DNA of 32,000 bases from Vulcanisaeta distributa DSM 14429 (GCF_000148385.1 NC_014537.1:900001-932000); one strand, 5' to 3'. Counted from the first letter of the stretch, positions 4,271 through 20,113 are shown. Translations and numbers: made by a program. The notes: generated by a model not told the origin, from the sequence alone.

Positions 4271-5464
4271 GTGGTTAGGTTTAGTGAATTACTACCTGAA
4301 TTCTGGAGGGAGTTTAGGTTTTGGCGTAATGTGAGTAATGAACTTAATGGTTCATCACCGCCTGGGAACTTCATTGGTTCTATGAATTATCCCTACATTA
4401 ATGTTGGTGCATTAATTAATGATGGTAGTATTGATGCGTCGATACTTGATAACCCAGAGGAGTGGTTTAGGCGTGGCTTTACCCAGTGGGATATTGTCAA
4501 GCTGAGGTCTAGAATAATACTTAGTAGGACGAAGACCTCGGTTAAGTCATTTAGTAATTCTATAATTGATAGGATTCAGGAGTTGAGTATTGGGCGTAAT
4601 CCGGTTAATGTTGAGGTTAGGTTGAGGAAGTTGGTGCTTAGGGCGTTGGCTGATGATTACCACGCACCACTTGGTAATATTGGTGAGTTGAGGGATTTGA
4701 GAATAACATCTAATGTCAGTGCTGAGGGCATAATTGAGAGGTTAGTGAATGATTATGATGTGGATGCCAGGACGGCGGTGATTGAGTTATACCGTGGCTC
4801 AATACCTATATCCCGCATACAACGCATCTTCGCGGTTGGGTTGTTGGGTGATAGGAGGTTTAGGAGGTTAGTTCCAACCAGGTGGTCCATAACGGCGGTC
4901 GACTCAATAATTGGTGAATATCTTAGGGACAGGGTTGTCGATTATAATGAGGTTGGGCAAGTCGAGGTTCATGAAATGGAGTACATGGGGAATAGGTACT
5001 TCGTAATACTCATACCTGGTCCGTGGAGGTATGAGCTTATTGAGCTGAAGATGCCAGGGTCAGTGTGGAATAGGGATAGTCATTCGCCTAGGGTGTACGT
5101 AGATTATGAGGGGGTTAGAGGCATGAAGGGGTATGCGGAGAGTACGGGTGGTGCGTTCTATGCAATTAGGCTTGGCGTACTGGAGTACCTTAATAGGATT
5201 GGTAGGCAAGCATCCGTGATAGCGGTTAGGGAAGTAACCCCAGAGTATAGGGTCCCGGTCGGTATTTGGCAGGCCCGTGAGGCTGTTAGGAATGGCATGG
5301 GGATTAATACGAAGAGGTTCTCGGATATCAACGAAGCGATTAATTACGTGAATTCCTCATTATCAACAGGGGATTTATGGCTTGTCCATAGCCACCTCAT
5401 TAGGGAGTTCAGGAGTGACCTGACTAGGTTCCTACTTAATGATCGAGAGAACCATACCTATTAG
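4271..5464 (+). CDS. Nre-family protein (archaeal DUF650/DUF651-type putative DNA repair protein), lacking an N-terminal zinc-ribbon
   Basis: 397-aa ORF with a GTG start. Segments 'SSPPGNFIGSMNYPYINVGAL' and 'LVPTRWSITAVDS' resemble the conserved Nre N- and C-terminal blocks as I remember them. An in-frame stop at 4244-4246 prevents any N-terminal extension. The C-terminal 'SDLTRFLL' is weakly PIP-box-like. Confidence 0.55.
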   Translation: MVRFSELLPEFWREFRFWRNVSNELNGSSPPGNFIGSMNYPYINVGALINDGSIDASILDNPEEWFRRGFTQWDIVKLRSRIILSRTKTSVKSFSNSIIDRIQELSIGRNPVNVEVRLRKLVLRALADDYHAPLGNIGELRDLRITSNVSAEGIIERLVNDYDVDARTAVIELYRGSIPISRIQRIFAVGLLGDRRFRRLVPTRWSITAVDSIIGEYLRDRVVDYNEVGQVEVHEMEYMGNRYFVILIPGPWRYELIELKMPGSVWNRDSHSPRVYVDYEGVRGMKGYAESTGGAFYAIRLGVLEYLNRIGRQASVIAVREVTPEYRVPVGIWQAREAVRNGMGINTKRFSDINEAINYVNSSLSTGDLWLVHSHLIREFRSDLTRFLLNDRENHTY

Positions 5465-9115: not shown

Positions 9116-9463
9116 GTGAGAAAGGTTCAGAAGAATTGTTTAACGCTGGTTGTGGATGTGTGCAATGATACGTTAGATAGGTTTAAGGGGGTCATGAATG
9201 CGGCTATTAGGAGGGTCGGCTTTGGTGGTGCCCTGAGGGTTCTCGTTTATAAGTGCAGGGAGCTCGACTTCAATAAATATATTAGAGAATTAAATTCAGT
9301 GATAGCCAATAATTTCTCCGTATCAATATTCGTATATGAATTCGATGATTTAAATGCCATAGTTAATGAGTTAAATAAGAACATGCTTCATGGCTGTGAT
9401 AGTTATGGCGTATTATCAACCATAGATTTACCGGCAAGTATTAATTATGAGAAATTGAAATAG
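9116..9463 (+). CDS. Hypothetical 115-aa protein, third gene of the HerA/TGT-like string
   Basis: ORF with a GTG start, 41 bp after the TGT-like gene on the same strand. It has host-like codon usage (AGG, GAG) and alternating hydrophobic strand/helix patterns ('LTLVVDV', 'ALRVLVYK', 'SVSIFVYEF'). No family recognised. Confidence 0.45.
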   Translation: MRKVQKNCLTLVVDVCNDTLDRFKGVMNAAIRRVGFGGALRVLVYKCRELDFNKYIRELNSVIANNFSVSIFVYEFDDLNAIVNELNKNMLHGCDSYGVLSTIDLPASINYEKLK

Positions 9464-11210: not shown

Positions 11211-11797
11211 GTAGTGCCATAATGGGCTTGATAGTACTGACTTCGTCAAGAGACGCAAGTATTAGAATGAGGCAGTTCCTCAATGAGTTGGAGTTGGTAA
11301 TACCCAATGCCGTTAAGGTTAATAGGGGTAAGTCATCAATCATTGAGATTGCGGGTAAGGCCCTTAGCCTTGGGGCCGACAGGATACTTTACATTGGTTC
11401 CAGGGGTGGAAATCCAGGCTTCATACGCTTCCTAAGGGTTAAGGAGGGGGTTATTGAGGTGATGCCATACTTAATAAGGATATTTGGCGTTAAATTACTA
11501 ATTGACATGCCTATTAATGTTAAGGGTAGGCAGAAGGCACGTAGTGGTGTTGTGGTATCCTTAGGTGAGTATGTGGAGGTTACGGATTTATTGAGTGAAC
11601 AGCTTGGATTACCAAGTATGAGGGTTTATGATTTTGAGAGTGTTAGGGGTATGTATGACGTTATTTTCCTAATTCATAGGGTTGAAAATGCCTATGAGGT
11701 GCAGATACTGAATGGTAGGGATTTGGGTCCTTATGGTCCATTTATGAAGATTAGTGATGTTATTTACGTTAAGCCTAGGGTGATTCGAATTGGGTGA
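11207..11797 (+). CDS. Brix/Imp4-domain ribosome biogenesis protein
   Basis: 'LIVLTSSRDASIRMRQFLNEL...VNRGKSS...GSRGGNPGFIRF' matches archaeal Brix-domain proteins, and it holds the conserved position after rpl37ae. It has a GTGA overlap with the L37Ae stop; an alternative ATG lies at 11222. Confidence 0.8.
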   Translation: MSSAIMGLIVLTSSRDASIRMRQFLNELELVIPNAVKVNRGKSSIIEIAGKALSLGADRILYIGSRGGNPGFIRFLRVKEGVIEVMPYLIRIFGVKLLIDMPINVKGRQKARSGVVVSLGEYVEVTDLLSEQLGLPSMRVYDFESVRGMYDVIFLIHRVENAYEVQILNGRDLGPYGPFMKISDVIYVKPRVIRIG

Positions 11798-12032
11798 CTG
11801 CGAATTTAAGGCTGTGTTTTCCCTGGAGGGTGTTGATAGGGAATTGATAGTTAAATCATTCAAGACTCTTGAGAAGGAGATGCGGTTTGGGAGGGGGTTT
11901 GTGAGCGTTGATGTGAGTGATAATGGTGTAGTGATAACTGTTTGTGCCAAGGACTTAACAAGTCTGAGAAGCCTGGTTAGTGGCGTTATGAAGTCGCTGT
12001 ACCTAATATTTAAGGTTGAGGAGCTTAGATAA
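11790..12032 (+). CDS. pcc1: KEOPS complex subunit Pcc1
   Basis: 80-aa ORF. The pattern 'FKAVFSLE...VKSFKTLEKE...VVITVCAKDLTSLRSLVSGVMKSLYLIFKV' matches Pcc1 (cf. '...IKATDSSALRGTVNSYLRW...'). It holds the conserved position between Brix and prefoldin beta. Confidence 0.7.
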   Translation: MGDCEFKAVFSLEGVDRELIVKSFKTLEKEMRFGRGFVSVDVSDNGVVITVCAKDLTSLRSLVSGVMKSLYLIFKVEELR

Positions 12033-12121
12033 TACCATATTTCCTCCATGTATATGCGTGATACTGCCTATAACCAACATGCGGATTAATATTTATTAAG
12101 GCTTAGTTCAATGGCGCTTTA

Positions 12122-12499
12122 ATGAGTTCATTACCACCATCATTACAGTCAGACCTGGAGAAACTCCAGGCACTGCAGGATCAGTTAAATAGTGTTAGGG
12201 TTAGGAAGCAGCAGTTCGAGAGTGAGCTTAAGGAAGTTGAGAGAGCTATTTCAGAGATTGAGAAGATACCTGCTGAAAGTAAGGTCTATAAGATCGTTGG
12301 TTCCTTCCTAGTCCTGGTAACTAAGGACCAAGCGCTTCAGGAACTTAAGGATAGGAAGGAGCTACTTGAACTTCACATAAAGACTTTATCAAGGCAGGAG
12401 AGTATGTTGATGAAGCAGATCGAGGACTTGAGAACACAGATAAATGAGGCATTGGCTAAGTTGCAGGGTGCTGGCGGAGTCGCTAAGGGTGGTGGTTAA
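12122..12499 (+). CDS. pfdB: Prefoldin beta subunit
   Basis: 125-aa coiled-coil/beta-hairpin/coiled-coil layout: 'LQALQDQLNSVRVRKQQFESELKEVERAISEI...VYKIVGSFLVLVTKDQALQELKDRKELLELHIKTL'. Confidence 0.9.
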   Translation: MSSLPPSLQSDLEKLQALQDQLNSVRVRKQQFESELKEVERAISEIEKIPAESKVYKIVGSFLVLVTKDQALQELKDRKELLELHIKTLSRQESMLMKQIEDLRTQINEALAKLQGAGGVAKGGG

Positions 12500-12504
12500 G
12501 AGTA

Positions 12505-12849
12505 ATGAGTAGCAGTAATGAGGTGCTTAATGAGATAGTTAATGTGGTTGCTGAGGAGGTTTACAAATACCTAATGCGTAAACTCCCTGAGAAGCTTCTT
12601 GAGGATATAGTTATTAATGTGGGATTTACGGACATGAATAATTATACCCTCGAGATTAGCATTGATGTAATGACGAATCCATTATTAAAGGGTCTTGATG
12701 ATATAATTAATGATGCTGTTGAGTTTGGGTTTAAAATAGCGGATTACTTAATGGATAAGTTCAGGAGGGGTGAATTGGTTGGCTTATCAACTGGAGAAAT
12801 TGAAAGAATTGCTGAGGAATACACAAAGAGTCTGCGTAATGACACATAG
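12505..12849 (+). CDS. Small conserved archaeal protein of unknown function (possibly DUF3194)
   Basis: 114-aa ORF directly after pfdB, a position I recall for DUF3194 in archaea. The family call is tentative. Confidence 0.55.
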   Translation: MSSSNEVLNEIVNVVAEEVYKYLMRKLPEKLLEDIVINVGFTDMNNYTLEISIDVMTNPLLKGLDDIINDAVEFGFKIADYLMDKFRRGELVGLSTGEIERIAEEYTKSLRNDT

Positions 12850-13768
12850 GCATGCAGACCTAGACGCATACGCATGTGGTGTGGCCACTAAGGAATTGAT
12901 TAATAAGCTTGGTCTCAATGCCGCCCTGGTAATCCCTGAGGGCCCTTCCTACGAGGTTAAAACGTTCATTACCAGACTTGGCATAAATTACCAGGGCCTA
13001 AATAATTGCGATGAAGCGGACTTAATATTCCTGGTCGATGTTAGTACGTATGCTCAGTTGAATGAGTTTAGAAACATAATTGGTGATAGGCCTGTGGTGG
13101 TTGTGGATCATCATGAGGTGCGTAATGTGGTTCCTACGGTATCCCTCGTGGACCCGAACGCCACAAGCTGTTCCGAGATTATAGCCCGGGTATTTAGGGA
13201 ATTTGAAATTGAACCTAGTACCGAGATCGCAACCCTCCTCATTGGTGGTGTACTGAGTGATAGTGGTAGGTTGAGTAGGGCTAGGCCTGAGACCTTTGAG
13301 GTGCTGGCGTGGCTGCTTAGGCTGGCTGGTAGGGATTATAGGGAGATAGTTAATGCGATGATTGAGGAGGTAACGTTTTCCGAGAGGATGGCTAAGGTTA
13401 AGGGCTTGCTTCGAATGAGGGCTTATAGGGCTGGTGATTATATAATCTGCCTAAGTAATGTAAATGCTTATGAATCATCACTCGCTGATACGCTGATTAA
13501 GTCGGGTTGTGACGTTGCATTGGTGGTTTCAGAGCATGATGGGGAAATGAGATTATTTGGCAGGGGTAGTAGGAGGATTGCTGAGAAGTTATCGCTTGCC
13601 GAGGTCTTTAATGATTTAGCTAAGTACTTTAATGGTGAGGGTGGCGGTCACGCAATGGCGGCTGCCCTGAGTATTAAGGCGAGGATCGACCCAACAACAG
13701 TATTAATAAAGGCTTTAAGTAGTGTTGAGCAAAGACTTGGTATTAAGGCATTAAGAATAACCGATTAA
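12770..13768 (+). CDS. DHH/DHHA1-family phosphoesterase (NrnA/RecJ-like)
   Basis: Motifs 'VMTHRHADLDAYACG' (DHH I), 'VVVVDHHE' (DHH) and 'GGGHAMAAA' (DHHA1). The GTG start at 12770 keeps the first beta-strand 'RVCVMTH' and overlaps the upstream ORF by 80 nt. An ATG at 12839 would truncate that strand. Confidence 0.85.
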   Translation: MNWLAYQLEKLKELLRNTQRVCVMTHRHADLDAYACGVATKELINKLGLNAALVIPEGPSYEVKTFITRLGINYQGLNNCDEADLIFLVDVSTYAQLNEFRNIIGDRPVVVVDHHEVRNVVPTVSLVDPNATSCSEIIARVFREFEIEPSTEIATLLIGGVLSDSGRLSRARPETFEVLAWLLRLAGRDYREIVNAMIEEVTFSERMAKVKGLLRMRAYRAGDYIICLSNVNAYESSLADTLIKSGCDVALVVSEHDGEMRLFGRGSRRIAEKLSLAEVFNDLAKYFNGEGGGHAMAAALSIKARIDPTTVLIKALSSVEQRLGIKALRITD

Positions 13769-13810
13769 GCGATGATTTTTAATAATTAGTAATACGATTA
13801 TTCTCAGGAA

Positions 13811-15157
13811 TCACCTTAATCTCAACTCCATAATAACTCTACCTATACCTATTGAGAATAATGATTCAGTAAGCCTATTAGTTACGTACTGCGTACTTAC
13901 ACCAGCGGTTGATCCATTAATGCCTATGGCAACAATTCCAGCACTTACATTACCTGAAGCTACCTGGCTATCCTCATAATTAAATACCTGTAATGTACAC
14001 CATGAAACCGCACTGACCTGTGATTGATACGTAGGTACTAGGTACTGTACTGGGGTTATGGGTATCACCGACCCATTAAAGAAGTCATATGCCTGCAAAT
14101 AGCCTCCAAACAGTAATGAGCCGTTAAGTAGGTATAGCCCCATTGGGTAGTTCTCGGTTTCATAAACAGGTATTGAATAACCACTCTGCGTTATGTAATT
14201 GACCTGAAGTAGGTAGTAGGTATTTGGTATGCAGGATGGATTTACTATAGTGCCGTTCGGCATCAGGAGTATTGGTGATATGTAAATCACGGGTCCAAAG
14301 GGTACTAGCCTCGGTCTTTGGTATATTGCGTATCCATAATTTGTGATTTCGCCGATGGTCATGTTAGGGCTAAGGGTTAAGTGAGTTATTAATGATGAAT
14401 TAACGTACTCGCTAAATGAATAACTAAGGACCTGAAGTACCTCCTGGAAGCCTGAACTAGGCCATGAGCTTGCGTTAATGCCTTGTCCAACCCACATTGT
14501 GAATACGCTTAGCCCAGGTAAGCTAACTTCATAATACTCACCAACGCCCTTCGTGGCTGGATTATAACCGTAGTAGTAATTCCATAGGTAATACGGCTCT
14601 CCATTAAGGGCGATTAAGTAACCACCGACGGTGCTTAGCCCACCTAACACTTGTGTGAGGCTTTCATTGCTTGTTTTGAATGCGAAAACTACGTACTCTT
14701 CACCATTTAAATCCTCGGTTATTAATACATACCAATTAGCATATACAGGCTGCGGATAAAGCAGGTACAATGGAACCTTTAATACCCACGTAATGCCACC
14801 CGTAGCATTAGTTATTGCCGTTGCATTAAGTAAAACCCACTGCTGCGCCGTGGTTTCTGAGGCATTGATTATGTACAATGTGAATTCCTTATCTGCCGTT
14901 GCCACCCAGACAGGCGTTACATTATCAATTAATGAGTCCTCATGATAGGTTAATGGGTATTCATTAACTATGCTACTTAAAAATTGTACCGTTGGTCTCG
15001 AGTCTGTCAAGTTCATTGTTATTACGTACTTCGCGTAGACTACGGGTGTGGGTGCCGGGCCATAAATTGTGTTTGCGTAAGTAATAGATGAGATTAATAT
15101 CAATATAATCGCTAGAGTTAGTGCATATGTTATCCATTTATTAGTCATCATATTCAT
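13811..15157 (-). CDS. Secreted or surface-anchored Tyr/Asn-rich glycoprotein, unknown family
   Basis: 448-aa ORF with an N-terminal signal/anchor 'MNMMTNKWITYALTLAIILILISSITYA'. I count about 14 N-x-S/T sequons (NLT, NVT, NAS, NAT x2, NES, NAS, NSS, NMT, NGT, NGS x3, NVS). It is very Tyr-rich and has no C-terminal TM helix. It is divergent from the ATPase gene across a 101-bp region. Confidence 0.75.
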   Translation of the reverse strand: MNMMTNKWITYALTLAIILILISSITYANTIYGPAPTPVVYAKYVITMNLTDSRPTVQFLSSIVNEYPLTYHEDSLIDNVTPVWVATADKEFTLYIINASETTAQQWVLLNATAITNATGGITWVLKVPLYLLYPQPVYANWYVLITEDLNGEEYVVFAFKTSNESLTQVLGGLSTVGGYLIALNGEPYYLWNYYYGYNPATKGVGEYYEVSLPGLSVFTMWVGQGINASSWPSSGFQEVLQVLSYSFSEYVNSSLITHLTLSPNMTIGEITNYGYAIYQRPRLVPFGPVIYISPILLMPNGTIVNPSCIPNTYYLLQVNYITQSGYSIPVYETENYPMGLYLLNGSLLFGGYLQAYDFFNGSVIPITPVQYLVPTYQSQVSAVSWCTLQVFNYEDSQVASGNVSAGIVAIGINGSTAGVSTQYVTNRLTESLFSIGIGRVIMELRLR

Positions 15158-15258: not shown

Positions 15259-16794
15259 ATGAGCTTAGACTTTCAGTTAATAAAGCCTGTCGGTCAACTT
15301 AAGGAGCTGGAGAGATATCCATTATATGAACCATTTGCATACGCAACAATAGTCCAGGATGAAAAGACTGGGGATATCATGTATTACCTCGAGGAAATAA
15401 CGCTTGACCCAGTCGAGCAACAAGTGTATAAGGAATTGGTGAGGATTGTAATGCTCGAGCTACCACCACCCGAGGAATTGACGAAGATGGGTGATGTGAA
15501 GAATTACCTGCTCAATGAACTAAAGAAGATTGTTGGTAGATATAGAAGACTCTTTAGAAACGTGTCTCCATCGTCCTTCGCTAAATTCCTATACTACATG
15601 GAGAGGGACTTGCTTGGTTATGGCCCAATAGATGCCTTAATGAGGGATGAGAATATTGAGGATATATCATGTGACGGCGTTGGCAAGCCTGTCTACGTAT
15701 TTCATAGGAAGTATGAGTCCATACCAACAAACATTGTGCCAATGACCGACCAGGCTCTTGATGACTTAGTCGTTAAGTTAATACACATGTCTGGTAGGCA
15801 CGTATCGGTGGCAACGCCAATAGTTGATGCCCAATTACCTGATGGTTCAAGGATAGCCGTTACGTATAGGAGGGAGGTTTCACCAGGTGGTTCCACGTTC
15901 ACGATAAGGAAGTTCAGAAAGAATCCACTAACATTTACAGAATTAGTTAGATTTGGAAATATCAGCGCAGAAATCGCTGGTTACTTCTGGGTGATGCTTG
16001 ATAATGGTAGGTCATTCCTAGTGCTTGGCGTCACAGGCGCTGGTAAAACGAGCTTCCTCAATGCCATGGCCACATTCATTAGGCCCCACATGAAGATAAT
16101 AACCGTTGAGGAGGTCCCAGAGATAAACCTACCGCACAAGAATTGGGTTAGGCTTGTTACGAGGCAGAGCTATGGTGCTGAGAAGATAAATGAGATCACG
16201 CTATTTGACCTGGTTAAGGCAACGCTTAGGATGAGACCTGATTACTTAATCGTCGGTGAGATCAGAGGTGAGGAGGCCTACGTATTGTTCCAAGCCGTGA
16301 ACACAGGCCATAGTGGTATATCGACAATGCACGCAGAGTCCTTTGAGGCGGCTGTTAATAGGCTCATGAGCCCACCAATGAATATACCACCGGCTTACAT
16401 ACCTGCCATGAACATATTCGTCATGATTAAGAGGGTTAAGATTGGTGGTAGGTTGACGAGGAGGGTCACTGAGGTTGGTGAGGTCTATATGGATGGTGAC
16501 AAGATTAGGTTCAATACGGTATTTAGGTGGAATCCAAGGACCGATACGCATGATTCATACGTTGAAAAGAGTATTTTAGTTAGGCAAATTAGCGATATGA
16601 CTGGTAAGGACGTTGATGAGATCCTCAGGGAAATAGATACTAGGGCGAAGATAGTTAGTTGGATGGTGGAGAATGGAATATTTAATTTCGAGGATGTCTC
16701 AACGTATGTACAGACATACTATACAAACCCAGATAAGATACTCAACCAGGTCTTTGGAAAGGTGAGCGATGTTGAAAGTATTACTCAGGTTTAA
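15259..16794 (+). CDS. Type II/IV secretion-system superfamily ATPase (archaeal FlaI/ArlI-, TadA/VirB11-like)
   Basis: 511-aa ORF with Walker A 'GVTGAGKTS', Asp-box region 'IITVEEVPEINLP', Walker B 'RMRPDYLIVGEIRGEEA' and His box 'NTGHSGISTMHAES'. The N-terminal domain has 'IEDISCDG...VYVFHRKY', typical of FlaI/GspE-type N domains. Confidence 0.9.
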   Translation: MSLDFQLIKPVGQLKELERYPLYEPFAYATIVQDEKTGDIMYYLEEITLDPVEQQVYKELVRIVMLELPPPEELTKMGDVKNYLLNELKKIVGRYRRLFRNVSPSSFAKFLYYMERDLLGYGPIDALMRDENIEDISCDGVGKPVYVFHRKYESIPTNIVPMTDQALDDLVVKLIHMSGRHVSVATPIVDAQLPDGSRIAVTYRREVSPGGSTFTIRKFRKNPLTFTELVRFGNISAEIAGYFWVMLDNGRSFLVLGVTGAGKTSFLNAMATFIRPHMKIITVEEVPEINLPHKNWVRLVTRQSYGAEKINEITLFDLVKATLRMRPDYLIVGEIRGEEAYVLFQAVNTGHSGISTMHAESFEAAVNRLMSPPMNIPPAYIPAMNIFVMIKRVKIGGRLTRRVTEVGEVYMDGDKIRFNTVFRWNPRTDTHDSYVEKSILVRQISDMTGKDVDEILREIDTRAKIVSWMVENGIFNFEDVSTYVQTYYTNPDKILNQVFGKVSDVESITQV

Positions 16795-17137
16795 AGATTT
16801 AAATTCCCTGGTTAAGTATTTAAATGAAGAATTGAATAAATTACTAATAGCCAAGAAGATACTGGATGATGAAGCGAAGAGGGACTCCCTCGTGGATATA
16901 ATAGAGATAGGGAGTAATGGTAATATTAGCATGAGGAGAGATAGGATATCAGAAATAATGAAAGGGATTATGAATGAACTTAATAGTAGGATTGAACATA
17001 TTAATCAACTACTTGAGGAGATAAAGGAGGAATTCAATGATAGTAATTTCACGGGCATAGTATTATTGGAGTTCAATAATGGAATACCAAATAGAGTATT
17101 ACTATCACAACCACTAACCTTGGGTGACTTTTCATGA
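16769..17137 (+). CDS. Small cytoplasmic protein, member of a local paralogue family (family X)
   Basis: 122-aa ORF that overlaps the ATPase gene by 26 nt. It has the family N-terminus 'MLKVLLRFKDLNSLVKYLNEEL' and C-terminal hairpin motif 'GIVLLEFNNGIPNRVLL'. The start is supported by alignment with paralogue N-termini. Confidence 0.65.
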   Translation: MLKVLLRFKDLNSLVKYLNEELNKLLIAKKILDDEAKRDSLVDIIEIGSNGNISMRRDRISEIMKGIMNELNSRIEHINQLLEEIKEEFNDSNFTGIVLLEFNNGIPNRVLLSQPLTLGDFS

Positions 17138-18003
17138 TATTCATGATACCCATGATACCGATATTAATAATAGTGATAATGATTGGAATGATAATACTAG
17201 GCCTTATTAGGCCGCCTTTAACCGTTATTCTACCATTGCTTGGCATTTACATAATATTAATGCTAATACCTTACATATTACCTAATTTAGTAATTAATCA
17301 ATACCTTAGTATTAAATATATCATATTACCAATAATAGGTTTAGCAATGGGTTATGGAATATCAATATTAATGAGTAAATACATGAATATCGATGTACGT
17401 TCACTGTTTGGGTTAAGGCAGGACCAAAGAAGGAAGGTTAAGAAGGTGAGGACTCGGGGTAAGCAGAAAGTTGAGAAAAGGCCTGAGGTTAAGCCTGAGG
17501 ATTTAGATAGGTTCATTAATGAGTCAATTAATACATTGAAACTTGGTATATCAATTAATGAGGCATTAGGCAGTTGGGTTGAGTATTATGATGGCTGGAC
17601 GGATGCTATAATAAGTATTTCTAGGAGGTTTATAGATATTAGGGAAAGTGTTGAAGCCATTAATAAGGAGGCGTTATTTCTATCAAGGATTAGGCAGTAT
17701 GAAAATAAGGCCCTATCACTTGGCTTAACACTGAGGGAGGAGTCAGCCTTTAAGAAACAGAGGAGATCAAGGTCTAAGAGTGATGAGGATAGATTGGTAA
17801 TTTATGTTAGGCCTGAGGAATTGGCTGGTGAGTTAATGACCACCGCGCAATTAATGAGCGGTTACGTCGATGAATTTAATGGAATACTTGAGAAGTTAAT
17901 ACATGATAAGGGGATTTCTCAATATATGGTTAATTCGCAGATACTGGTTCTCTATGTTGATGGGATACCCAGGAAGTTCATAACAATTAATAAGGGCAGC
18001 TAG
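17134..18003 (+). CDS. Membrane-anchored family X member (3 N-terminal TM helices, basic linker, cytoplasmic domain)
   Basis: 289-aa ORF with an ATGA overlap to the upstream gene. It has Met/Ile-rich TM helices in residues ~3-82, then 'RQDQRRKVKKVRTRGKQKVEKR'. The C-terminus 'ILVLYVDGIPRKFITIN' shares the family motif. It does not resemble the FlaJ/TadC T2SSF layout. Confidence 0.75.
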   Translation: MIFMIPMIPILIIVIMIGMIILGLIRPPLTVILPLLGIYIILMLIPYILPNLVINQYLSIKYIILPIIGLAMGYGISILMSKYMNIDVRSLFGLRQDQRRKVKKVRTRGKQKVEKRPEVKPEDLDRFINESINTLKLGISINEALGSWVEYYDGWTDAIISISRRFIDIRESVEAINKEALFLSRIRQYENKALSLGLTLREESAFKKQRRSRSKSDEDRLVIYVRPEELAGELMTTAQLMSGYVDEFNGILEKLIHDKGISQYMVNSQILVLYVDGIPRKFITINKGS

Positions 18004-18407
18004 GCACCTTCCTCATTCTGTACGATGATCATTGCGGGTATTGAATCAACAAGTAGTGCAATTATTGGGCGATTCTTATCAATATTAAGTGCCTCTAATC
18101 TATCAATTACAGACTTTATAATCGCAGACCTCCTCTGTATGTAACCAGCTACATCATTAATCACATTACTCTTCGTATTAGTACCTGGCTTATAAACAAT
18201 CCTTAGAGAAAATACCTCTAAGGAGCCATCGACAAACCTAATGTTCTCCGAGATCTCGCTTGCCAATGCCGTATTATTCTCAGAACCAAGTATCTCATTC
18301 CAATTCTGCTTAAGCATGTACATGAACCTATACGAATTACCCAATTCGCCTTTCAATGTCTGAATTAATTCGTTCAATGATCTGAATCTCTTAATCTCAA
18401 TAATCAT
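18000..18407 (-). CDS. Small cytoplasmic protein, family X member
   Basis: 135-aa ORF with N-terminus 'MIIEIKRFRSLNELIQTLKGEL' and C-terminus 'IIALLVDSIPAMIIVQ'. It has a 4-nt overlap with the upstream gene, and its stop codon shares CTAG (18000-18003) with the convergent gene. Confidence 0.7.
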   Translation of the reverse strand: MIIEIKRFRSLNELIQTLKGELGNSYRFMYMLKQNWNEILGSENNTALASEISENIRFVDGSLEVFSLRIVYKPGTNTKSNVINDVAGYIQRRSAIIKSVIDRLEALNIDKNRPIIALLVDSIPAMIIVQNEEGA

Positions 18408-19051
18408 GAAGAACCACCAATAACTTCCTCAATCTTCTTAAATTGCTCCGGATAATTTATATCGCTTAATCTAACGGTTGTTTCGAAATTCCTTGAGTTA
18501 TTGTTAATTGCTGAGATTGCCTCATCAATCATAATCATTATCTTAGCCAATTCATCAGCTGTTAAACCAGAAATACCGCTTAAGATACTTGGTACCTCAG
18601 TTGATTCCCTAATATTAGGCAAGTGCAGTATTGATGTATCCGATACATCAGGTAATGAATAACCTACTACCACATCTATTGACGTATTATCTATTATAAT
18701 TACATACTCATCGCTCATGCCGAGCTTCTCTGTGAATTCCATAGCCTGCTTAATGGACATGAGTACATTTGTATAGTAATTAATTGCATCCTTAATCGCC
18801 TCCTTATAACCACTGGCCGTTAGTACGTATATTACCTCAATATCATCAGCCTTAGTCGTTACGTTCATACCGCCCTTAATGTATGTGGCTGAGGACCTAC
18901 TTCTTAATTCCCTGATTAGTTTATTCACGGACTCATTATCGGGATTGTAAGCATGTATTTCATTAATGACCTGCATTATTTCATTAAGTTTATTACCAAG
19001 ATCCAGAGCTATATCCCTTAATCTATCACTTCTTAGTACTATCAAGGTCAA
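18404..19051 (-). CDS. Family X member with a C-terminal extension of about 90 aa
   Basis: 215-aa ORF with N-terminus 'MTLIVLRSDRLRDIALDLGNKL' and an internal hairpin 'YVIIIDNTSIDVVVGY'. An extra helical tail follows ('LTADELAKIMIMIDEAISAINN...'). Confidence 0.7.
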   Translation of the reverse strand: MTLIVLRSDRLRDIALDLGNKLNEIMQVINEIHAYNPDNESVNKLIRELRSRSSATYIKGGMNVTTKADDIEVIYVLTASGYKEAIKDAINYYTNVLMSIKQAMEFTEKLGMSDEYVIIIDNTSIDVVVGYSLPDVSDTSILHLPNIRESTEVPSILSGISGLTADELAKIMIMIDEAISAINNNSRNFETTVRLSDINYPEQFKKIEEVIGGSS

Positions 19052-19415
19052 TCACCACCAGTGATGGTACATCACTAAAGTACCTAACCATGGCTTTAAA
19101 ACCATAATCCTTAAGCTTACTTAACCTAGCCTCGAGAGCCTCATAAATTGCGTATTCTAACTTAAGAAATTGAACAGCCTTTAAAAACAATTCCCTATAG
19201 GCCTCCTTTGATGGTTCTCTATATAGGATTATCGATATTGAGTTAGGTATATCAATAACAATTCTCTCACTTTTATCGGGTAAGTTGTTTTCACTGATTA
19301 TCTTCTTGTAAATTTCGTATAGGTTCTTCACATACTCAGAGACCCTTTTCTTATTCTCAAGAACTCTCCTATGTAATTCCTTCACATCAATGCTCATGTC
19401 AAGGTTTGCGCTCAT
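19026..19415 (-). CDS. Small cytoplasmic protein, divergent family X member
   Basis: 129-aa ORF with central 'RIVIDIPNSISIILY' and C-terminal 'AMVRYFSDVPSLVVIDL' hairpin motifs. It has a 4-nt overlap with the upstream gene and a 26-nt overlap with the downstream gene. Confidence 0.7.
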   Translation of the reverse strand: MSANLDMSIDVKELHRRVLENKKRVSEYVKNLYEIYKKIISENNLPDKSERIVIDIPNSISIILYREPSKEAYRELFLKAVQFLKLEYAIYEALEARLSKLKDYGFKAMVRYFSDVPSLVVIDLDSTKK

Positions 19416-19807
19416 GGCATTATCACCAGCCTCGTTTTCTTATTGGCATAATCTATCATAACCATTACGGATGCGTTTCTATCCTTAATTTCACTTAAGT
19501 ACTTACTCACCTTCTCAATCTGACCTATTACATAATTAATATTGTCATTTATCGCGTTCAATTTATTCAATAGCCATGTTGAGTGAGGCGCAATATGTAT
19601 GTTTAATGCATGTGGTATGGCCTGCACAGTTATTACTTGATGAGACGGCTGAAAACCAAGTTTCATGAGTTTCTCCTCCACGTCAGCATTTATTTTCAGT
19701 TTCTCCCTAATTACACCATAACGTTCCCTTAAGGTTGATAATTGTTCTTTGATTATATTCAATTTGTTTATTGCATCCTCAACCGTGCTAAATAATAGCA
19801 CTAACAT
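19412..19807 (-). CDS. Small cytoplasmic protein, family X member (first gene of the minus-strand operon)
   Basis: 131-aa ORF with N-terminus 'MLVLLFSTVEDAINKLNIIKEQL' and C-terminus 'SVMVMIDYANKKTRLVIM'. A TATA-like 'AATAAATATA' lies on the minus strand about 27 nt upstream of the ATG. Confidence 0.7.
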   Translation of the reverse strand: MLVLLFSTVEDAINKLNIIKEQLSTLRERYGVIREKLKINADVEEKLMKLGFQPSHQVITVQAIPHALNIHIAPHSTWLLNKLNAINDNINYVIGQIEKVSKYLSEIKDRNASVMVMIDYANKKTRLVIMP

Positions 19808-19882
19808 TCAGATTCTTATTAATTAGGCTATATTTATTCTTTACTTGTGAAAGTGATGGTATGCCCCTATTTAGAGACGGCA

Positions 19883-20113
19883 TTAAATCCTCTCCTCTCT
19901 AATCAACCTGGAGATCTCACTTATAGCCCTGTTTATATCCCTAATATCATTATGTATAGCCATTATTTCCGCCATAATCAATGAATTATCTAAACACTTA
20001 ATAAGCAGGTCAGCCCAACTCTTTGAATGATATATCTGCTTGAGTTTTTTCAGTTCTTTATATTGCTGCTCATCAACCTCAATCACGATTCTTTTCTTGC
20101 CATTCTTAGCCAT
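19883..20113 (-). CDS. Putative ribbon-helix-helix (CopG/Arc/MetJ-like) DNA-binding protein with a coiled-coil tail
   Basis: 76-aa ORF. 'KKRIVIEVDEQQYKELKKLKQIYHSKSWADLLIKCL' fits a strand-helix-helix RHH pattern. It lies directly upstream of, and is co-oriented with, the family X operon. A TATA-like 'CTTTAAAAT' lies about 30 nt upstream. Confidence 0.55.
   Translation of the reverse strand: MAKNGKKRIVIEVDEQQYKELKKLKQIYHSKSWADLLIKCLDNSLIMAEIMAIHNDIRDINRAISEISRLIREERI

Follow-up and report, generated by a model that had tools for sequence, protein, structure and literature searches.

In the archaellum motor, ArlX (FlaX) and the ArlC, ArlD and ArlE proteins make up a cytoplasmic scaffold around the ArlI ATPase. 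In the PilM/PilN/PilO and GspL/GspM sets, the alignment subcomplexes of bacterial type IV pili and T2SS, PilN and PilO are small paralogous proteins which combine coiled-coil with alpha-beta-beta elements and whose hetero-oligomers link the machine to the cytoplasmic ATPase side. Members of the Thermoproteales harbour up to seven FlaI/TadA-type ATPases per genome, several of them without recognizable platform or pilin partners; the question of the role of these orphans was raised by Makarova et al. (2016, PMC4858521). One such orphan ATPase is encoded in the stretch of DNA considered here, a window of 32,000 nucleotides from the genome of Vulcanisaeta distributa DSM 14429 (NC_014537.1:900001-932000), where it is adjoined by six genes, Vdis_0957 onward, whose products are referred to as A122, B289, C135, D215, E129 and F131. 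The ATPase, A122 and B289 genes lie on one strand, and a small ribbon-helix-helix (RHH) gene followed by F131, E129, D215 and C135 on the other. This module, which Vulcanisaeta has in common with a small number of sister lineages, is best explained as a lineage-specific accessory set for an ATPase of type-IV-filament (FlaI/AapE-like) systems, and the family proteins as distant paralogues whose genes had separated before these lineages split. A122, the C-terminal domain of B289 and C135 can reasonably be regarded as distant copies of one small domain, which D215 and F131 probably have as well, and E129 possibly.

The arrangement is best read as a scaffold functionally comparable to ArlX/ArlCDE or PilM/PilN/PilO, without homology to them. 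Like the archaellum set, the six are accessory proteins rich in helices and specific to their lineage, whose genes accompany that of a FlaI-type ATPase and which are presumed to form a ring or scaffold at it, and B289 would be the counterpart of the membrane-anchored ArlX with its cytoplasmic domain. The two sets differ in that there is no sequence relation between them (in Pfam, only FlaC_arch with F131 at E = 0.39), that the Vulcanisaeta proteins would have a mixed alpha/beta domain and not a pure coiled coil, and that the locus is devoid of ArlB, ArlF, ArlG, ArlH and ArlJ genes; no archaellum gene is present in the window. In the PilN/PilO sets each protein is anchored by a transmembrane (TM) segment and has a periplasmic domain, whereas five of the six Vulcanisaeta proteins are soluble and cytoplasmic. 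Closer in lineage are the type-IV-pilus-like loci of clades 4D and 4E, which belong to the same archaeal order, include the same type of ATPase, contain no pilins and have uncharacterized membrane and cytoplasmic partners that replace or adjoin TadC; however, these partners are proteins of other arCOGs, and neither the convergent genes C-F nor a paralogy is described there (PMC4858521).

All six open reading frames (ORFs) proposed in an earlier sequence-only reading were found where it had placed them, with the N-termini and hairpin strings that it quoted; A122 and C135 match proteins of the V. distributa DSM 14429 genome at 100%. They are present in identical order at all eight Vulcanisaeta species loci, which were retrieved via the ATPase. 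Compared with four Vulcanisaeta loci, they show ratios of nonsynonymous to synonymous substitution (dN/dS) of 0.05-0.26 versus 0.02 for the ATPase, with a dN 5-10 times that of the ATPase, and are therefore real, fast-evolving coding genes under purifying selection. In three JCM drafts (L001, L017 and L029) the region at ~11500-14600 shows several of the six as pairs of ORFs, each pair a single gene broken in two; as unrelated neighbours are split too, these look like indel sequencing errors and not pseudogenes.

The module extends beyond the genus. Word-indexed (k-mer) searches found the A122 and C135 families in Vulcanisaeta only (39 homologues of C135), an outcome that is weak taken alone because the reach of such searches, gauged with a prefoldin beta control, stops at ~55% identity. 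A full HMMER search with the A122 profile against 1.84e9 representative proteins matched seven clusters. One of these, P0119 (E = 4.5e-14), is encoded on a 36.6-kb metagenomic contig, L055, which holds the entire module: ATPase, A' and B', then the convergent C', D', E' and F' and the RHH ORF. The orthologues correspond one-to-one, with 79% identity for the ATPase and 27-46% for the six genes (28% for D215); the 26-nt overlap between ATPase and A is repeated, while other genes flank the module at either end. P0118 represents a third lineage, a 1.1-kb contig with A and the beginning of B. The overlapping reading frames, together with retention of the module in L055 amid different flanks, support a functional tie of the six genes to the ATPase. 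A metagenome scan returned only Vulcanisaeta-like loci and no more diverse homologues, and none of the six genes lies beside the orthologous ATPase in Caldivirga, which is 63-66% identical. Another match of the A122 profile (E = 2e-7), P0120, is a 1264-residue cell-surface repeat protein from an unrelated organism which aligns via six repeated stretches (YTVNYLEQDTNKVL...) and is most likely a repeat-amplified chance match. A viral origin was considered and rejected, since no relatives were found in IMG/VR and a Foldseek search of BFVD gave nothing at E < 0.1.

The sequence-only reading had regarded the six as a single paralogue family, a view that is reasonably well borne out for A122, the C-terminal domain of B289 and C135, weakly so for D215 and F131, and that finds no confirmation for E129. 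Scans of the six proteins against Pfam, NCBIfam, PHROGs and PADLOC returned nothing at or near threshold; a DUF7198 match of E129 (E = 0.004) was dismissed as chance because it was seen in one of eight orthologues. Profiles of the A, C and E families found no matches in the PDB. BLASTP matches among the six are weak, at 25 bits or less, and several are colinear, including residues 1-118 of A122 with 159-273 of B289 and 3-112 of A122 with 17-122 of E129. Alignment of profile hidden Markov models (HMMs) with hhalign yielded no significant pair at genus level. Once the profiles had been extended with the L055 orthologues (effective number of sequences, Neff, 1.6-2.3), the leading pair was A-C (probability 22%, E = 9e-4, 108 columns over the full length), followed by A-B (20%, E = 1.1e-3, at the C-terminal hairpins), C-D (7.5%, E = 0.0047, colinear, 57-114 versus 56-117), A-F (5.7%, E = 0.0067, colinear) and B-C (4.4%, E = 0.0094, 124 columns). 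A second run agrees, with probabilities of 11.6% for A-C and 0.4% for E-C.

Taken together these scores exceed those of the six against decoys, namely 13 families from the same loci giving 78 decoy pairs (Mann-Whitney p = 6e-4). An E-value below 0.01 was reached by five of the 15 pairs among the six versus two of the 78 decoy pairs (Fisher p = 1e-3), and the alignments among the six are longer (48 versus 18 columns) and in register. The profile similarity anticipated by the earlier reading is thus a collective one (p ~1e-3), with no single pair attaining significance. Merged HMMs from which a family had been left out repeatedly bring the omitted family to the top of 5121 ORFs: the D+E+F model finds C135 at E = 0.005, and F131 is the top non-member for the A+B+C+E model, at E = 7e-5 in a small database and 0.016 in the 5121 ORFs. 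The recurrent best match outside the family, with E down to 9e-4 in the same set, is an ORF of Caldivirga sp. MU80 (L050, 1067-1546, + strand), identified as prefoldin alpha by its sequence and by its neighbours, a gene for a ribosomal protein on one side and ftsY on the other.

Two motifs had been taken as common to the six. The C-terminal hairpin (h-h-h-D/N-G/S-I/V-P, then a hydrophobic strand) is kept within four of the families, A, B, C and E. A regular expression for it matches A122, B289 and C135 and, in the background, 6 of 1350 ORFs, all TmcA orthologues; the chance of at least three matches among six, calculated from the background counts for a pattern defined post hoc, is ~2e-6. The hairpin accordingly recurs in these three, F131 having no proline there. 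A leave-one-out hairpin HMM recovers B289, and B289 only, at ranks 1-4 of 5121 ORFs. The N-terminal motif did not survive as a family signature. The C-terminus of Nre ('MGINTKRFSDINEAINYV') and an internal stretch of a 115-residue ORF ('SIFVYEFDDLNAIVNELN'), both encoded in the window, mimic the N-termini of A122, C135 and F131 and score equally well; the motif is therefore a generic strand and helix cap.

AlphaFold2 models were made for two of the six proteins. The A122 model (alignment of 12 sequences; mean predicted local distance difference test, pLDDT, 86; predicted template modelling score, pTM, 0.74) comprises strands E3-8, E41-47, E53-59, E98-103 and E106-112 and helices H11-38 and H60-89. 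The C135 model (22 sequences, pLDDT 80, pTM 0.67) comprises strands E3-8, E52-60, E63-72, E115-120 and E123-129 and helices H11-40 and H79-106. Both have the identical order β-α-β-β-α-β-β, elements of like size and two helices of ~30 residues, which reproduces the succession of strand, long helix, hairpin, long helix and C-terminal hairpin deduced earlier. A secondary-structure predictor of our own making agreed with the models at a three-state accuracy (Q3) of 0.45-0.70 and was not used as evidence. Foldseek comparison with 350,542 PDB chains gave no match at E < 0.1 for either model, all E-values being at least 0.48. Several neighbour families are nevertheless common to both (prefoldin, V1-ATPase stalk subunit, phage SAM lyase, DXO and Y-family polymerases), an indirect sign that the two models resemble each other.

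Several results weigh against the interpretation of the six proteins as related partners of the ATPase. No HMM-HMM pair is significant by the usual standard, with Neff just 1.6-2.3, and E129 has no hhalign link to the other five (best E = 0.056). The modelled likeness of A122 and C135 is one of element order, in two of six proteins. The merged HMMs also match prefoldin alpha, long coiled-coil proteins and the Nre C-terminus, so that part of the signal is generic and shared helix composition may inflate the scores. Finally, the Caldivirga ATPase is found without the six genes, which argues that it is not strictly dependent on them. The six could even be unrelated orphans, adjacent by accident and alike only in the generic way to be expected of small alpha/beta proteins that have amphipathic helices and come from an AT-rich hyperthermophile; insignificant pairwise matches, an N-terminal motif that recurs in unrelated proteins, a hairpin HMM that recovers B289 alone and merged HMMs that match coiled-coil proteins at similar E-values are all in keeping with this. 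It is nonetheless unlikely, considering that the A122 and C135 models agree in the order and lengths of seven elements, that scores and aligned lengths among the six exceed those of decoys in register (p ~1e-3), that few background ORFs contain the hairpin motif and that the module is kept as a unit though its flanks have changed.

The shape of the models raises the prospect of a known fold. The central part of A122 and C135 is predicted to be a helix, a beta-hairpin and a helix, and the best superposers of both are prefoldin alpha and beta (1fxk, 2zdi, 6nr8), with template modelling (TM) scores of 0.4-0.5 and probabilities of up to 0.69, which are not significant. Prefoldins would share with A122 and C135 this long-helix centre and, if the Vulcanisaeta set hetero-oligomerizes, the building of hetero-oligomers from small paralogous subunits; one membrane-anchored member and the genomic context of an ATPase set the Vulcanisaeta proteins apart. 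The six might be diverged prefoldin-type subunits assembled into a jellyfish-like hetero-oligomer, which would serve the substrates of the ATPase as a holdase. Profile searches go some way in this direction, with sub-threshold matches to prefoldin (PF01920/PF02996; TIGR00293 at E = 0.018 for F131 and 0.08 for A122, Prefoldin_2 at E = 0.16), and the merged HMM matches the Caldivirga prefoldin alpha across its helix-hairpin-helix. However, when the families were compared one by one, with hhalign, to a prefoldin-beta profile of 54 sequences, the probabilities were at most 5.5%, no better than decoys, and 'prefoldin-like' is thus a description of shape only. The N-terminal strand and C-terminal hairpin of A122 and C135 are absent from prefoldin, the Foldseek E-values are those given above, and the true prefoldin beta gene lies elsewhere in the window. 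An origin from prefoldin is, on balance, quite improbable.

More improbable still is true homology to the ferredoxin-like domains of PilN, PilO and GspM or to Roadblock/LC7, which the sequence-only reading had put forward together with a fold built from a repeated alpha-beta-beta unit. No internal alpha-beta-beta duplication is detectable in the six proteins. A beta-alpha-beta-beta-alpha-beta order is that of the ferredoxin-like plait, and a few ferredoxin-like entries, de novo and natural, do occur among the Foldseek results (6wxp, 2kl8, 1y0h), but they superpose poorly (TM score 0.13-0.25, E > 0.6), and the helices are roughly double the length that is usual in this fold. No compact (alpha-beta-beta)x2 ferredoxin-like fold superposable on PilO, PilN or GspM was obtained. 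Chains of PilO, PilN, GspM, MglB or LC7/Roadblock do not figure in the top 50 of either model; none of the six proteins matches PilN, PilO or T2SSM in Pfam at E <= 1, nor is there such a match in NCBIfam. Roadblock/LC7/MglB likewise has no Pfam match, and the order predicted for A122 and C135 begins with a strand and has just two strands after helix 2. The single N-terminal TM anchor followed by a non-cytoplasmic domain that typifies PilN, PilO and GspM is also missing, B289 having three TM helices and the others no such anchor. Hydropathy shows no hydrophobic segment in any protein other than B289, and in the latter a linker with 13 K/R in 26 residues follows the TM helices and places the C-terminal region in the cytoplasm. 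The topology proposed earlier, with five cytoplasmic proteins and one anchored in the membrane and bearing a basic linker, agrees with hydropathy and sequence.

The ATPase itself matches Pfam T2SSE at E = 1.5e-34 and the NCBIfam FlaI model at 398 bits, under the cutoff of 550. Its identity is 89-99% within Vulcanisaeta. The nearest ATPases outside the Thermoproteales are those of Bathyarchaeota and Methanomassiliicoccales, at loci with pilins and two TadC genes, the arrangement described for subsystem 4A (Makarova 2016, PMC4858521; Sivabalasarma and Albers, 2026 preprint). The ATPase is thus of the clade 4A type, its assignment to the published GI being our inference. Bathyarchaeota, Methanomassiliicoccales and others provide 41 related loci, in which one or two TadC genes directly follow the ATPase and pilins precede it. 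No TadC-like ORF occurs within 10 kb of the ATPase in the eight Vulcanisaeta and three Caldivirga loci, and in the former the position of TadC downstream of the ATPase is taken by A122 and B289. The possibility of B289 being a diverged TadC was discarded, as it has no Pfam match, T2SSF included, and its family, aligned by hhalign with two families of TadC taken from 40 of the related loci, gave probabilities below 1%.

Only two genes adjoining the ATPase, matching A122 and B289, were noted by Makarova et al. (PMC4858521), who mention neither the four convergent genes C-F nor a relationship among the set; the preprint by Sivabalasarma and Albers (2026) on the type IV filament (TFF) systems of archaea does not mention these genes. 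The account of Makarova et al. would fit a situation in which the RHH-F-E-D-C operon is independent of ATPase-A-B and serves another cellular role, A122 and B289 being the sole partners of the ATPase. The two sets are indeed separate, convergent transcription units, and D215, E129 and F131 are poorly linked to A122, B289 and C135. Against this, both units stay together in L055 despite the changed flanks, and A122, from the first operon, has its closest relative in C135, from the second. Independence of the two operons is therefore rather unlikely.

Gene context suggests, tentatively and with somewhat less than even confidence, that the module specifies a lineage-specific, hetero-oligomeric cytoplasmic scaffold anchored by B289 which docks or regulates the ATPase. 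The domains would associate into a hetero-oligomeric cytoplasmic assembly via exposed strands, hairpins and long helices; B289 would tether it to the membrane by its three TM helices; and the assembly would dock or regulate the hexameric ATPase, the genes of the ATPase, A122 and B289 being coupled in translation on this view. The small RHH protein may regulate the second operon, F-E-D-C. Oligomerization, contact with the ATPase, the role of the RHH protein and the membership of D215, E129 and F131 are what we infer here. A bolder version, in which the six subunits form a pseudo-sixfold hetero-hexameric ring or cage matching the hexameric ATPase and functionally replace the TadC platform, so that the motor is rewired to a new membrane adaptor, possibly for a non-pilus task, is a long shot. 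Reaching less far, the module provides a concrete candidate partner set for one orphan FlaI/TadA-type ATPase, consisting of one protein tethered to the membrane and as many as five soluble ones related to it. If the six proteins bind the ATPase, TadC is not the only means by which type-IV-filament motors can couple to the membrane, and a new small domain family would be added. The reach of this proposal is limited, since Vulcanisaeta shares the family with no more than one or two sister lineages.

Table. Features of the V. distributa window (positions counted from its first nucleotide).
Feature	Position	Strand	Remarks
FlaI/TadA-family (T2SSE) secretion ATPase, 511 aa	15259..16794	+	Gene on which the module is anchored; intact Walker A/B and His box
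A122 (Vdis_0957), 122 aa	16769..17137	+	Soluble; start overlaps ATPase stop by 26 nt
B289, membrane protein	17134..18003	+	~3 predicted TM helices at residues 1-81; K/R-rich linker 95-118; C-terminal region predicted cytoplasmic
B289 C-terminal domain, last ~130 residues (159-289)	17608-18000	+	Resembles A122 and C135
C135, 135 aa	18000..18407	-	Soluble; final gene of the minus-strand operon; convergent with B289
D215	18404..19051	-	Soluble; N-terminal ~135 residues may carry the same domain as A122/C135, then ~80-residue extension
E129	19026..19415	-	Soluble; [SG]-D-[VI]-P hairpin near C-terminus; possible member of the family
F131	19412..19807	-	Soluble; N-terminal strand-helix similar to the family; C-terminal hairpin without Pro
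RHH/CopG-like ORF, 76 aa	19883..20113	-	75 nt upstream of F131, same strand; putative regulator of F-E-D-C
448-aa protein	13811-15157	-	Divergent from the ATPase
Prefoldin beta	12122-12499
115-aa ORF	9116-9463	+	Internal mimic of the N-terminal motif
Nre C-terminus	5297-5437	+	Mimic of the N-terminal motif

The genes are tightly packed. Overlaps of 4 nt are found for A/B, F/E and D/C, E129 overlaps the start of D215 by 26 nt, and the convergent B289 and C135 have 4 nt in common at their stops. The RHH-like ORF has weak Pfam matches to VAPB_antitox and RHH_3, and its 78-residue orthologue occupies the same position in L055 (13119-13355). The remaining neighbours in the window are housekeeping genes, encoding Nre, a HerA-like ATPase, DUF2848, prefoldin beta, a DHH phosphoesterase, TmcA and a pyrimidine-dimer glycosylase. 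The 448-residue protein, taken to be secreted, has a hydrophobic segment at its N-terminus and is rich in N-x-S/T sequons, and its N-terminus bears no typical class III (pilin) signal; it is kept in Vulcanisaeta, does not adjoin the module in L055 and matches no family. The module is richer in AT than its surroundings, which may stem from fast evolution or from a K/N/I-rich composition: the GC content at 17001-20000 is 35-37% versus 41-47% in the flanks, and in L055 the trend runs in the same direction, more weakly, at 44.7% versus 47.4%.

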